In this document: positions 43,892 through 48,131 of the stretch, in pieces
How the letters are laid out: each line of letters starts with the position of its first letter
Numbering within the stretch: the first letter of the stretch is position 1
Origin: Escherichia phage PP01
DNA length: 64,000 bases
Direction: 5' to 3' (one strand)
Sequence record: NC_054930.1
Position numbers and translations under genes: made by a program
The notes under the pieces: model-generated
Seen by the model: the letters and a program-made list of their open reading frames with translations, nothing else
Databases searched by the model: none
Told to the model about the DNA's origin: nothing

Positions 43892-44170
43892 TCAAAATGT
43901 AATTTCTAACCAATCACCATCACGCTGATCACTATTGACTTTAAAGCTGAATCCTTCTTTTCTCAGCCAATCACCAATTTCTTCAGTAATCAATTTATCA
44001 CGAGCAATACAATAATAATTAAAATGTGTTTTACCTTGTTCAGCTGCTTTATTAGCAAGTTCCGAAAAATCTTTAATAAAACATTCTAGCTTAAACTGTT
44101 TACTTTTGAATGCTTTTTCGCGTAATTGATTAGCAAAAGATTCATTTTCATAAAGATCATACTGTTCCAT
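43892..44170 (-). CDS. Hypothetical protein (24.2-like position)
   Basis: 92 aa ORF between rnlB and hoc. Confidence 0.5.
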   Translation of the reverse strand: MEQYDLYENESFANQLREKAFKSKQFKLECFIKDFSELANKAAEQGKTHFNYYCIARDKLITEEIGDWLRKEGFSFKVNSDQRDGDWLEITF

Positions 44171-44372
44171 TTTTCACCTTTTTATTGATATGTCTTTTTC
44201 TATAGACAACTTTTTCTCGAGTTTCAAATTTATTCTTAGCAGTCATAGCTCGAGCCCATAATACAGCCACTTCTTTTGCCTGTAAGTTCAATTCACGAGC
44301 AATTTCAATGAATGACTTTCCAGACTCATGGAGTGTAAACACCACAACCTCAGTTCTCATAATCAATCTCAT
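44157..44372 (-). CDS. Hypothetical small basic protein (24.3-like position)
   Basis: 71 aa ORF; possible helix-turn-helix (GKSFIEIARELNLQAKEVAVLW). Confidence 0.45.
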   Translation of the reverse strand: MRLIMRTEVVVFTLHESGKSFIEIARELNLQAKEVAVLWARAMTAKNKFETREKVVYRKRHINKKVKNGTV

Positions 44373-44430: not shown

Positions 44431-44456
44431 AAATGAAGAAAGGGGCCGAAGCCCCT
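44431..44456 (-). terminator. Terminator after hoc
   Basis: aggggccgaagcccct hairpin with a U-run on the minus strand (plus-strand gaagaaa). Confidence 0.55.
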
Positions 44457-44460
44457 GAGA

Positions 44461-45879
44461 TTATGGATAGGTATAGATGATACCAGTTTCTAAAGCAGTT
44501 TTATGAATGATGTATCCATTGCGCGATTCTTGAACATCAACTTCTGGATAGTCTTTCATCATCTTCTGAAGAGTGTAACGATGCAAGTAGTATTTACTAT
44601 CTGGATCTTCAGTTTTCCAATCTTTACCTTCTTCAGTCATTTTTTGGATTTCATCCATAACCCACCAACCGCACCAGATATAAGCTGAGCTACGATGTGG
44701 AAGAGGATGAACATAAGGTAATTCACCTTCTGGTTCCGGAGCAACTTTATCAGTCACTTGAACTTGACCTGTGGCTTTAACTGTTTTACTATCATAGTCA
44801 GTTGCTGTAACGACAGCAGTAACTTCAATAGTTTGACTTCCAATAGATGATGTATCAACGGTGTATACATTAGTTGACCCTTCTACAGGAGAAGAATCTT
44901 TCTTCCATGAATACGTAATTTGTGCTTCTTCCGGAGCATCCGTAACGTTAGCAGTAAATGTAGCCGAAGCATCTTGCTGAACATTAATAGAAGGAGGAGT
45001 CAATGTAACCTGTGGATTCATTGTCTTCTTATTAACTGTCAATGATACTTCATTGGAAGTAACTTCCTTTTCATTATAATTTTCTGCAGTTACTTGGGCT
45101 ACGCATTTAATTCTTTTTACTCCACTTGTAGTTGGAGTATAGTTAAATGTAGAGTTAGTTTCTCCACCAACTTGTGAATCATCTACATACCACTGATACG
45201 TGGCAGACGCTCCATCGGGTTGAGAAGCTAAGGCAGCAGTAAATTGAACCGGAGTTCCAATTACTCCAGCAGCAGGACTAGCAGGAGTTACTGCCAAGGT
45301 AGTTGTCTGCGTCTTTTTATTAACCGTCAATGATACTTCATTAGAAGTAACGCTCAATGCATCATAATCTGTCGCAGTTACTTGAGCTACACACTTGATT
45401 TTTTTAACTCCGCTTGTGGAAGGAGTGTAATTGAATGTAGCGTCAGTTGCTTCGTCTACAGGAGAACCGTCAACATACCATTGATACGTAGCAGATGCGC
45501 CCGATGGCTGTGAAGCTAAGGCAGCAGTAAATTCAACGGCTGTTCCGATTACTCCTTCTGGAGGACTATTAGGAGTTACAGCTAAGGTAGTTGTCTGTGT
45601 CTTATTTTGAACTGTGATAGTTGTACTAATTTCAGCTGTTTCAGCTTCAGCTTCTGGAACTGTATTTGTTGCAACCACTTTAATAGTCTTTTGACCAGCA
45701 GGTCCTTTTAATACATAATTAAAGGTTGCTTCAGCTCCATCCTGTGGAACATTATCTACGCTCCAAGCATAGGTAATAGTTCCACCTCCAGTTTCACCAC
45801 TGGGTGTAGCAGTAAACTGCTTGGTTTCATCAATAACCCCTGTTGGTGTTTTAGGAGTTATATCAACTGTAAAAGCCAT
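44461..45879 (-). CDS. hoc: Hoc outer capsid decoration protein, extended (472 aa)
   Basis: Ig-like domain repeats and the C-terminal capsid-binding region ...WCGWWVMDEIQKMTEEGKDWK...; about 96 aa longer than T4 Hoc (376 aa) owing to a tandem domain duplication. Confidence 0.9.
   Translation of the reverse strand: MAFTVDITPKTPTGVIDETKQFTATPSGETGGGTITYAWSVDNVPQDGAEATFNYVLKGPAGQKTIKVVATNTVPEAEAETAEISTTITVQNKTQTTTLAVTPNSPPEGVIGTAVEFTAALASQPSGASATYQWYVDGSPVDEATDATFNYTPSTSGVKKIKCVAQVTATDYDALSVTSNEVSLTVNKKTQTTTLAVTPASPAAGVIGTPVQFTAALASQPDGASATYQWYVDDSQVGGETNSTFNYTPTTSGVKRIKCVAQVTAENYNEKEVTSNEVSLTVNKKTMNPQVTLTPPSINVQQDASATFTANVTDAPEEAQITYSWKKDSSPVEGSTNVYTVDTSSIGSQTIEVTAVVTATDYDSKTVKATGQVQVTDKVAPEPEGELPYVHPLPHRSSAYIWCGWWVMDEIQKMTEEGKDWKTEDPDSKYYLHRYTLQKMMKDYPEVDVQESRNGYIIHKTALETGIIYTYP
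45028..45603 (-). repeat. Tandem direct repeat, 2 x 288 bp, inside hoc (duplicated Ig-like domain)
   Basis: Two consecutive 96-codon units with highly similar protein sequence (NKKTQTTTLAVTP.SP..GVIGT.V.FTAALASQP.GASATYQWYVD...FNYTP.TSGVK.IKCVAQVTA...VTSNEVSLTV). Confidence 0.8.
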
Positions 45880-46569: not shown

Positions 46570-46582
46570 AATATTTCCTCAG

Positions 46583-46590
46583 TATAAATA
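46583..46590 (+). promoter_or_regulatory. Late promoter TATAAATA for uvsW
   Basis: Exact TATAAATA 30 nt upstream of the uvsW ATG. Confidence 0.55.
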
Positions 46591-46619
46591 TAGATATATT
46601 TATTACATGGTATTTAGAC

Positions 46620-48131
46620 ATGACTGACATTAAAGTACATTTTTACGATTTTAGTCACGTGAGAATTGATTGTGAAGAAAGTACATTTCATGAACTCCGT
46701 GATTTCTTTAGCTTTGAAGCTGATGGGTATCGTTTTAATCCGAAATACAAATATGGTCACTGGGATGGACGAATCCGTCTTTTAGATTATAATCGCCTTC
46801 TTCCATTCGGTTTAGTTGGGCAAATTAAAAAGTTCTGTGATAACTTTGGCTATAAAGCCTGGATTGACCCGCAAATTAATGAAAAAGAAGAATTATCAAG
46901 AAAAGATTTTGATGAATGGATTTCTAAATTAGAAATCTATTCAGGAAATAAAAGAATTGAACCACACTGGTATCAAAAAGATGCAGTGTTCGAAGGATTA
47001 GTTAATCGTCGTAGAATTCTTAATCTTCCAACATCCGCAGGTAAATCTTTAATTCAAGCTTTGCTTGCACGTTATTATTTGGAAAATTATGAAGGTAAAA
47101 TTCTTATCATTGTTCCAACAACTGCTTTAACAACTCAGATGGCTGATGACTTTGTTGACTATCGTTTATTCAGTCATGCAATGATAAAGAAAATCGGTGG
47201 TGGAGCATCAAAAGATGATAAATATAAAAATGATGCACCAGTCGTTGTGGGTACATGGCAAACTGTAGTAAAACAACCAAAAGAATGGTTTTCCCAATTT
47301 GGTATGATGATGAATGATGAATGCCATCTTGCTACAGGAAAAAGTATTTCATCTATCATATCGGGTTTAAATAACTGCATGTTCAAATTCGGTTTGTCTG
47401 GTTCATTACGTGATGGAAAAGCCAATATCATGCAGTATGTTGGAATGTTTGGTGAAATATTTAAGCCAGTAACGACTTCTAAATTAATGGAAGATGGGCA
47501 AGTAACTGAGCTAAAAATTAATAGTATTTTTCTTCGCTATCCTGATGAGTTCACTACTAAATTAAAGGGAAAAACTTACCAAGAAGAAATAAAAATTATT
47601 ACTGGACTCAGTAAAAGAAATAAATGGATTGCTAAATTAGCTATTAAACTTGCACAAAAAGATGAAAACGCTTTTGTCATGTTTAAGCATGTATCACATG
47701 GTAAAGCTATTTTCGATTTAATTAAAAATGAATACGATAAAGTTTATTACGTATCAGGGGAAGTTGATACCGAAACACGCAACGTAATGAAAACCTTAGC
47801 TGAAAACGGTAAAGGAATAATTATAGTAGCTAGTTATGGTGTATTTTCTACTGGTATTTCAGTTAAAAATCTGCATCACGTTATTTTAGCGCACGGTGTT
47901 AAATCTAAAATTATTGTATTGCAAACAATAGGTCGCGTATTACGTAAGCATGGTTCTAAAACAATCGCAACGGTCTGGGACCTCATAGATGATTGTGGTG
48001 TTAAGCCAAAATCTGCTAATACGAAAAAGAAATATGTTCATTTGAACTATCTTTTAAAACACGGCATTGATCGTATTCAGCGCTACGCAGATGAAAAATT
48101 TAATTACGTAATGAAAACAGTTAATTTATAA
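46620..48131 (+). CDS. uvsW: UvsW RNA-DNA / DNA helicase
   Basis: 503 aa; SF2 helicase motifs (PTSAGKS Walker A, DECH box); matches T4 UvsW. Confidence 0.96.
   Translation: MTDIKVHFYDFSHVRIDCEESTFHELRDFFSFEADGYRFNPKYKYGHWDGRIRLLDYNRLLPFGLVGQIKKFCDNFGYKAWIDPQINEKEELSRKDFDEWISKLEIYSGNKRIEPHWYQKDAVFEGLVNRRRILNLPTSAGKSLIQALLARYYLENYEGKILIIVPTTALTTQMADDFVDYRLFSHAMIKKIGGGASKDDKYKNDAPVVVGTWQTVVKQPKEWFSQFGMMMNDECHLATGKSISSIISGLNNCMFKFGLSGSLRDGKANIMQYVGMFGEIFKPVTTSKLMEDGQVTELKINSIFLRYPDEFTTKLKGKTYQEEIKIITGLSKRNKWIAKLAIKLAQKDENAFVMFKHVSHGKAIFDLIKNEYDKVYYVSGEVDTETRNVMKTLAENGKGIIIVASYGVFSTGISVKNLHHVILAHGVKSKIIVLQTIGRVLRKHGSKTIATVWDLIDDCGVKPKSANTKKKYVHLNYLLKHGIDRIQRYADEKFNYVMKTVNL

Follow-up and report, generated by a model that had tools for sequence, protein, structure and literature searches.

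Two diverged Ig-like units in the Hoc decoration protein of Escherichia phage PP01, a common allele that is very probably one state of an old copy-number polymorphism

The Hoc protein of T4 and its relatives is a monomeric fibre, with a C-terminal domain at the centre of a gp23* hexamer and a string of Ig-like domains that projects from it. Variation in the number of these domains is already known from published work. A set of 650 Hoc homologues keeps Ig-like strings, with up to 10 domains in phage Muldoon, and the protein is dispensable under laboratory conditions (Fokine et al. 2023, PMC10385173). What such variants, Muldoon included, have in common is the capsid anchor, while the number of Ig-like domains mounted on it varies. 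Mucin binding and retention in the gut have been traced to Hoc domains (PMC11150434, PMC11853027, PMC9271167). For example, domain 2 of the three-domain Hoc of phage PNJ-9 binds fucosylated MUC2 through S183, L184 and T185 (PMC11853027), and in the Hoc of PNJ-6 residues E29 and G33 are reported as MUC2 contacts. Shorter and longer forms can both be found. The published PNJ-9 'variant Hoc' (PMC11853027) is without domain 3, and the 283-aa Hoc of AV112 has the same architecture. A parallel case came to light in the present analysis: in Klebsiella phage Marfa and some T4-like Klebsiella phages, an Ig-like tandem duplication brings Hoc to about 471 aa, compared with about 375 aa in relatives. For a two-unit Tequatrovirus Hoc, or a series of one to four units, no description was found in the literature searched; Sathaliyawala 2010 and Fokine 2011 may mention one.

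The hoc gene analysed here lies in a stretch of 64,000 nt from Escherichia phage PP01 (NC_054930.1), referred to below as the window. Its open reading frame encodes 472 aa plus stop, compared with 376 aa for T4 Hoc, and its features are collected in Table 1. The product matches PHROG 1149, 'Hoc-like head decoration' (E 1.8e-141), as well as PHROG 21694, and a phmmer search against the PDB returns five T4 Hoc entries, 5vf3_Z among them, at E 1e-221. Pfam gives a PKD match above the gathering threshold (E 1.9e-10) and weaker matches to Ig_2, Ig_3 and I-set. When the ORFs and their PHROG matches are set against the T4 annotation, hoc is seen to be flanked by inh and by 24.3, 24.2 and rnlB (RNA ligase 2), as in T4; uvsW follows at 46620, and the T4 gene order, near gene 24 and uvsW, is kept. 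The 20 kb around hoc is 96-97% identical in nucleotides to Tequatrovirus genomes. Three marks of a T4-type Hoc are present, namely the capsid-binding domain, the N-terminal string of Ig-like domains of PKD/I-set type and the conserved locus. By these similarities the gene is identified as the hoc of a Tequatrovirus, or T4-like phage, in agreement with a sequence-only reading of the same DNA that had named it and given both protein lengths correctly. The hairpin that follows the stop codon is GC-rich, and the records of G2133, fPS-90 and ATK47 annotate a terminator in this position.

Table 1. Features of hoc in the window (positions are those of the 64,000-nt stretch; aa numbers are those of the window protein unless T4 is named).
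Feature	Position	Strand	Basis
hoc coding sequence, with four predicted Ig-like domains and a C-terminal capsid-binding domain	44461..45879	-	ORF list; PHROG 1149; PDB 5vf3_Z; Pfam
Domain 1, Ig-like, aa 1-92	45604..45879	-	AlphaFold2 beta-sandwich, pLDDT 81-92; 81/92 aa identical to T4 domain 1
Unit A, first domain-2-type Ig-like unit, aa 93-188; extra relative to T4	45316..45603	-	Repeat finding; codon register
Unit B, second domain-2-type Ig-like unit, aa 189-284; corresponds to most of T4 domain 2	45028..45315	-	89/96 aa identical to T4 domain 2
Domain 3, Ig-like, aa 285-376	44752..45027	-	AlphaFold2 beta-sandwich, pLDDT ~90; Pfam Ig_3 and I-set, aa 289-374; 81/92 aa identical to T4 domain 3
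Linker and C-terminal capsid-binding domain, aa 377-472, with stop codon	44461..44751	-	94/96 aa identical to T4 Hoc 281-376
Intrinsic-terminator-like hairpin AGGGGCTTCGGCCCCT with T-rich tail	44431..44456	-	Consensus scan and sequence; 4 nt past the hoc stop

The phmmer alignment to T4 Hoc falls into two blocks, in which residues 1-103 correspond to T4 1-103 and residues 185-472 to T4 89-376, and this implies exactly one extra unit in the window gene. Counting Ig domains by structure prediction, a check that the sequence-only reading had proposed, gives four: the AlphaFold2 model (57-sequence alignment, mean pLDDT 83) has four beta-sandwich domains across residues 1-377, with pLDDT of about 85-95. 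The C-terminal alpha/beta domain is modelled with low confidence, but it is nearly identical to the T4 domain of solved structure, and this establishes the fold. The best PDB matches found with Foldseek are strings of four Ig domains, namely Dscam1 Ig1-4, Sidekick Ig1-4 and ICAM-5 D1-D4. On this model, the window Hoc is made up of four Ig-like domains and a T4-type capsid-binding domain, whereas T4 Hoc has three Ig-like domains. Protein identity to T4 Hoc is 88% in each of domains 1 and 3 and 98% in the capsid-binding domain. All 14 of the gp23*-contacting residues listed by Fokine et al. 2023 (PMC10385173) are kept (Y293, H295, R300, Y304, W306, W309, W310, Q354 and E355-Y360), and the ESRNG loop is likewise conserved. 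With an anchor this nearly identical, the window Hoc would be expected to sit as a monomer at the centre of each gp23* hexamer. Both proteins are acidic, with a pI of 4.56 for the window Hoc and 4.74 for T4 Hoc, and both are linear Ig-like strings; the window Hoc has a mass of about 50.7 kDa, compared with 40.4 kDa, and one additional domain-2-type unit.

The extra unit is part of a tandem repeat. Tandem Repeats Finder reports a period-288 array of 2.0 copies at 45023-45603, with 78% matches and no indels, and a gap-free repeat search places the copies at 45023-45310 and 45311-45598, with 78% identity. In codon register the in-frame 2 x 288 nt repeat runs from 45028 to 45603, exactly as the sequence-only reading had it. 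The loop patches quoted there (NSPPEG/ASPAAG, DGSPVDEATDA/DDSQVGGETNS and TDYDALS/ENYNEKE) are all found, and the substitutions are clustered in loops as claimed: the amino acid differences between the units form 8 clusters (permutation p = 0.003), and predicted loops hold 16 of the 21, with five in strands (Fisher p = 0.001). What does not hold is the description of a near-exact second copy. Units A and B differ at 64 of 288 nt (77.8% identity) and at 21 of 96 aa (78.1% identity), with a dS of 0.83, a dN of 0.14 and a dN/dS of 0.17 (Nei-Gojobori), and the longest identical run common to both is 22 nt. The further claim that Hoc had been enlarged by an Ig-like duplication stands in that the 96 extra residues are one domain-2-type Ig-like domain, but the event is neither recent nor peculiar to the PP01 genome. 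The earlier observation was real and correctly identified, but overstated.

Sequence divergence also gives an indication of the age of the two units. Unit B is 90% identical in nucleotides to T4 domain 2 with a dS of 0.29, like the remaining gene, where dS between the window hoc and T4 is 0.26-0.33 in domains 1, 3 and 4. Unit A is 81% identical to T4 domain 2, with a dS of 0.76. A recent tandem duplication can be recognised by copies that are near-identical and closer to one another than orthologues in sister genomes are, which is not what is seen here. These comparisons identify A and B as old, diverged paralogues or alleles of one domain and not as a new duplication.

The pattern of change points to purifying selection on both units. 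Their nucleotide differences fall 13, 13 and 38 at codon positions 1, 2 and 3, and the 75 framework codons, which specify the same amino acid in A and B, hold 30 synonymous and 0 non-synonymous differences. Across 30 units, 52 of the 96 codons are invariant in protein despite a pS of about 0.4. Positive selection on the units was not detected in averaged ratios, since dN/dS lies below 1 overall (0.17), in strands (0.12) and in loops (0.20-0.26); with loop averages below 1, diversifying selection is not demonstrated. Non-synonymous diversity exceeds the mean synonymous level at only 7 codons, a count that is not a formal test. The target of a diversity-generating retroelement, where differences between the repeats would be confined to adenines of one copy and a reverse transcriptase would lie nearby, was also considered. 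This candidate was rejected: the differences show no adenine bias (A/C/G/T 19/17/13/15) and comprise 33 transitions and 31 transversions, and no reverse transcriptase is found among the neighbouring hoc-region ORFs, which match the inh, 24.3, 24.2 and rnlB families.

Among sequenced relatives, the two-unit gene is far from rare. GenBank holds 677 phage records that match the window gene, and the best 40 of the 677 are all of the 1419-1425 bp form. The population share was taken from 60 records sampled at even steps down the ranking of these matches. About 20 of them have two units (19 span 1418-1425 bp in one piece), about 35 have the T4 form of 1131 bp, and slur03 has four units. In a collection of 5.8 billion proteins, the best 120 protein clusters include 80 at 376 aa, 29 at 472 aa and 7 at 568 aa. 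The Hoc lengths of 376, 472, 568 and 664 aa correspond to 1, 2, 3 and 4 domain-2 units, with UGKSEcP1 (568 aa) as an example of three and slur03 (664 aa) of four; at the other extreme are the PNJ-9 and AV112 proteins that lack domain 3. For instance, the 472-aa Hocs of phage 132, vB_EcoM_SP1, G2133, BF15, IME340, pSs-1 and fPS-90 share the architecture, length and A-then-B order of the window Hoc. Deposited 472-aa Tequatrovirus Hocs are 93-97% identical to the window hoc in nucleotides, with allelic differences only. The moskry record already annotates a repeat region inside hoc, and the exact window protein is not on record, the nearest protein cluster being 97% identical. The two-unit hoc is a common allele, present in about a third of sequenced relatives, and is real but ordinary. 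Phage FL33 is the best match to the 20-kb backbone (96.9%), yet has a one-unit hoc, which indicates that copy number varies independently of the genome backbone. A scan of IMG/VR gave 21 loci, mostly distant, which serve as outgroups and not as a measure of frequency. The Marfa-type duplication arose independently, in a lineage whose protein identity is only about 50%, and there the third Ig-like domain is duplicated (offset 94 aa, 80% identity), compared with the second in the window Hoc.

Searching other units for their state at the 64 nucleotide sites that discriminate A from B reveals a mosaic pattern. The T4 unit has a B head of about 225 nt and an A tail of about 60 nt. RB33 has an A head and a B tail with the switch near nt 215-225, FL33 changes from A to B after about 40 nt, and the units of three- and four-unit genes are further A/B mosaics. 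The single units of PYPS2T and ATK47 are A-type almost throughout. Of the informative site pairs in a set of 30 units, 54% do not pass the four-gamete test, and Rmin is 30 (Hudson-Kaplan); with synonymous sites near saturation, recurrent mutation may explain part of this incompatibility. Neighbouring sites are less incompatible than in permutations (PHI-like test, p < 0.0005), and the block mosaics of A-type and B-type sequence suggest unequal recombination and gene conversion. Units of the same gene are well diverged: across 38 multi-unit protein clusters their amino acid identity is 0.56-0.85, with no near-identical pair, and dS between units within multi-unit genes is 0.55-1.55. The linkers that flank the array both carry the motif ACAGTT..AA..AAGACA, and a founding junction between such similar inter-domain linkers is plausible. 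A and B themselves may be either the products of an ancient duplication within the gene or diverged alleles joined by unequal exchange during co-infection.

Taken together, the gene is very probably a functional hoc with domain 2 as a two-unit array, and one state of an old, recombining copy-number polymorphism of one to four units. The number of units segregates among closely related phages, and purifying selection retains both units as folded domains with differences mostly in the loops. The conserved beta-strand framework could provide the homology that unequal crossing-over and gene conversion require, both between units and between the alleles of co-infecting phages. Such unequal exchange would alter the number of units and shuffle loop variants. 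Two other phage systems offer analogies, each in a different protein and fold. In the T-even tail-fibre adhesin locus, for which Tetart, Desplats and Krisch reportedly described conserved-motif recombination in 1998 (cited in PMC3012670), modules can be exchanged through conserved segments on either side of variable patches. In crAss-like phages, where de Jonge and colleagues are said to have found tandem repeats of BACON domains in 2019 (cited in PMC9271167), a carbohydrate-binding beta-sandwich varies in copy number within a structural protein.

Other accounts of the locus must be weighed against this polymorphism. The sequence-only reading had raised the concern that the second unit was produced by mis-assembly, which would have expanded a domain present only once. 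At least one assembly has met difficulty here: in the unverified GenBank record of Shigella phage KNP5, a gap of 990 Ns falls exactly in this part of hoc. However, assemblers neither create nor collapse copies that are 22% diverged and share so short a run, to which the concern does not apply; the reading frame is intact with protein-level constraint on both units, and the same 1419-bp architecture occurs in hundreds of independently sequenced phages. With the divergence of A and B and the independent genomes, an assembly artefact is effectively refuted and can be given practically no credence. Only slightly more credible, and still highly improbable, is a recent, lineage-specific duplication by which a four-domain Hoc of T4 type was enlarged, the history that the sequence-only reading implied. 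In its favour are the perfect head-to-tail tandem, in frame and with a 288-nt unit, and the single unit of the reference T4. Against it, the dS between A and B is well above that between the window hoc and T4 elsewhere in the gene, and also above allelic dS in domains 1 and 3, which averages 0.31 over 13 hoc genes with maxima of 0.53-0.71. In addition, none of the 38 multi-unit clusters has near-identical units, and A-type units stand alone in other phages.

The direction of change is a harder matter. The multi-unit gene may be the older form, with the one-unit genes of T4, RB33 and FL33 as deletion derivatives produced by unequal crossing-over and T4 Hoc as a shortened protein, a history to which we would give somewhat less than an even chance. 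The units of RB33 and FL33 have exactly the form predicted for a two-unit gene after a single A x B unequal crossover, and divergence between units exceeds allelic divergence in the remaining gene. The T4 unit, on the other hand, has its blocks in the reverse order, so that deletion would need a further event or a parent with three or four units. A and B may also have begun as diverged one-unit alleles that were joined by unequal recombination, and the data do not polarise these events. Deletion is compatible with the copy-number polymorphism preferred here, which takes in expansion and contraction alike; and since some one-unit genes resemble deletion products of two-unit genes, to speak of a Hoc 'enlarged' relative to T4 is a mere choice of reference. 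It can be argued, too, that variation in unit number and loops is a neutral length polymorphism without functional consequence. Hoc is dispensable in the laboratory (PMC10385173) and the GenBank records of T2 and T6 have a frameshifted hoc, from which it follows that unit number could be nearly neutral, and every relative with between 2 and 6 Ig-like domains seems viable. Neutrality is nevertheless rather unlikely. The low dN/dS and the invariant codons described above reflect strong purifying selection on both units, which implies that the protein is maintained, including its extra unit, and published work gives Hoc a role in mucin binding and gut retention (PMC11150434, PMC11853027, PMC9271167).

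The sequence-only reading suggested that domain number could change display length or binding specificity, which is a reasonable proposal, and what the extra unit may do for the phage can be considered from its residues and its size. SLT, the MUC2-binding triplet of PNJ-9, is kept at matching positions in both window units, 183-185 and 279-281, and domain 1 of the window Hoc carries E29 and G33. The SLT motif sits in a conserved beta-strand, however, and is found too in Hocs whose MUC2 binding maps to domain 1. Such wide conservation means that these residues allow no prediction of binding specificity. The extra unit is a second copy of a domain type for which binding to fucosylated MUC2 has been shown in a relative, and it is plausible that it provides an added glycan-binding module. 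The effect on length can be estimated by scaling. The Hoc fibre has a published length of 180 A for four domains, and one more Ig domain, if collinear with the others, would plausibly lengthen it by about 4-4.5 nm (roughly 45 A). A more ambitious proposal is that the domain-2 array acts as a recombination-driven cassette system built on an invariant beta-strand framework. Loop variants and unit number (1-4) would be reshuffled during co-infection, with diverged units always paired, and the capsid surface would in this way be matched to the mucosal niche in its glycan specificity, avidity, reach or antigenicity. We regard this as speculative and, at present, doubtful. If it were true, the duplication of another Ig-like domain in T4-like Klebsiella phages would be a convergent strategy.

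The window hoc is a normal member of a well-populated allele class, for which annotators already use the names Hoc or PKD-domain protein. Its value is as a modest point of comparative genomics, comprising one to four diverged domain-2 units, mosaic exchange among them and a parallel duplication in another lineage. To a literature in which variable domain number was already described, the picture of a recombining array is a tidy but unsurprising addition. The pattern nonetheless bears on work on phage-mucus adherence and on the engineering of T4 Hoc for display. Nature provides Hocs of five, six and seven domains on one capsid anchor, which shows that extra Ig-like modules are tolerated in the fibre, and these natural length variants form a ready-made set with which the effects of length and domain content on mucin binding can be tested.

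Genes around hoc also differ among these phages. The homologue of gene 24.3 encodes 71 aa in the window and 56 aa (171 nt) in T4, and it is annotated at 186 to 216 nt in relatives; because these annotated sizes differ, either the start or the length of this small gene is variable. Between inh and uvsW, both T4 and FL33, the relative with the closest genome backbone, have segE, which encodes a GIY-YIG homing endonuclease; in the window phage the gap at this position is only about 50 nt, so segE is missing. A scan of the full window for the late-promoter motif of T4, TATAAATA, gave 23 occurrences versus 10 expected, a count reached in 0 of 100 shuffles. The same whole-window scan found no minus-strand copy directly upstream of hoc or inh.

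Coordinates of features in the window and in loci extracted from relatives (L-numbers)
Feature	Source	Position	Length	Remark
Gene 24.3 homologue	window	44157-44372	71 aa	
inh-uvsW gap	window	46570-46619	~50 nt	inh end 46569, uvsW start 46620
Late-promoter motif TATAAATA	window	46583-46590		plus strand, ahead of uvsW
Marfa hoc	Klebsiella phage Marfa, MN044033, L007	1501-2907		
AV112 Hoc	L039	301-1152	283 aa	
T2 hoc	PV648363, L034	301-1417	1117 nt	disrupted
T6 hoc	AP018814, L035	301-1432	1132 nt	disrupted

Hoc is found in other architectures as well. Among relatives of Marfa, hoc matches span either ~1085-1137 nt, corresponding to one unit, or ~803-853 nt. In AV112 Hoc, domain 2 is joined directly to the capsid-binding domain without domain 3, the same architecture as that of the published PNJ-9 variant Hoc. 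Several hoc records are disrupted or incomplete. For example, in the GenBank records used here the gene of phage T2 can be read only with frame switches and has three CDS annotated across it, and in that of phage T6 a single frameshift is present, with two CDS annotated. In the unverified record of Shigella phage KNP5 (KX452698, L038), a run of 990 Ns begins inside hoc at the end of domain 1, and the domain-2 region is unassembled. Several Hoc protein clusters (P0015, P0012, and P0008) derive from entries that give Escherichia coli or Shigella sonnei as the organism and are probably phage contigs within bacterial assemblies; one of these clusters carries the name ‘endonuclease’, probably a misannotation.

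A Tequatrovirus-type hoc is also present in phages classed as Mosigvirus, namely moskry (L029), ATK47 (L036), and AV112, with 87 to 90% nucleotide identity across the whole gene. The match to hoc of RB69, which is also listed under Mosigvirus, is limited to the last ~273 nt. Because the match covers the whole gene in the first three phages and only this terminal stretch in RB69, the sequence comparison suggests that the Ig-like part of hoc has been exchanged across genera.
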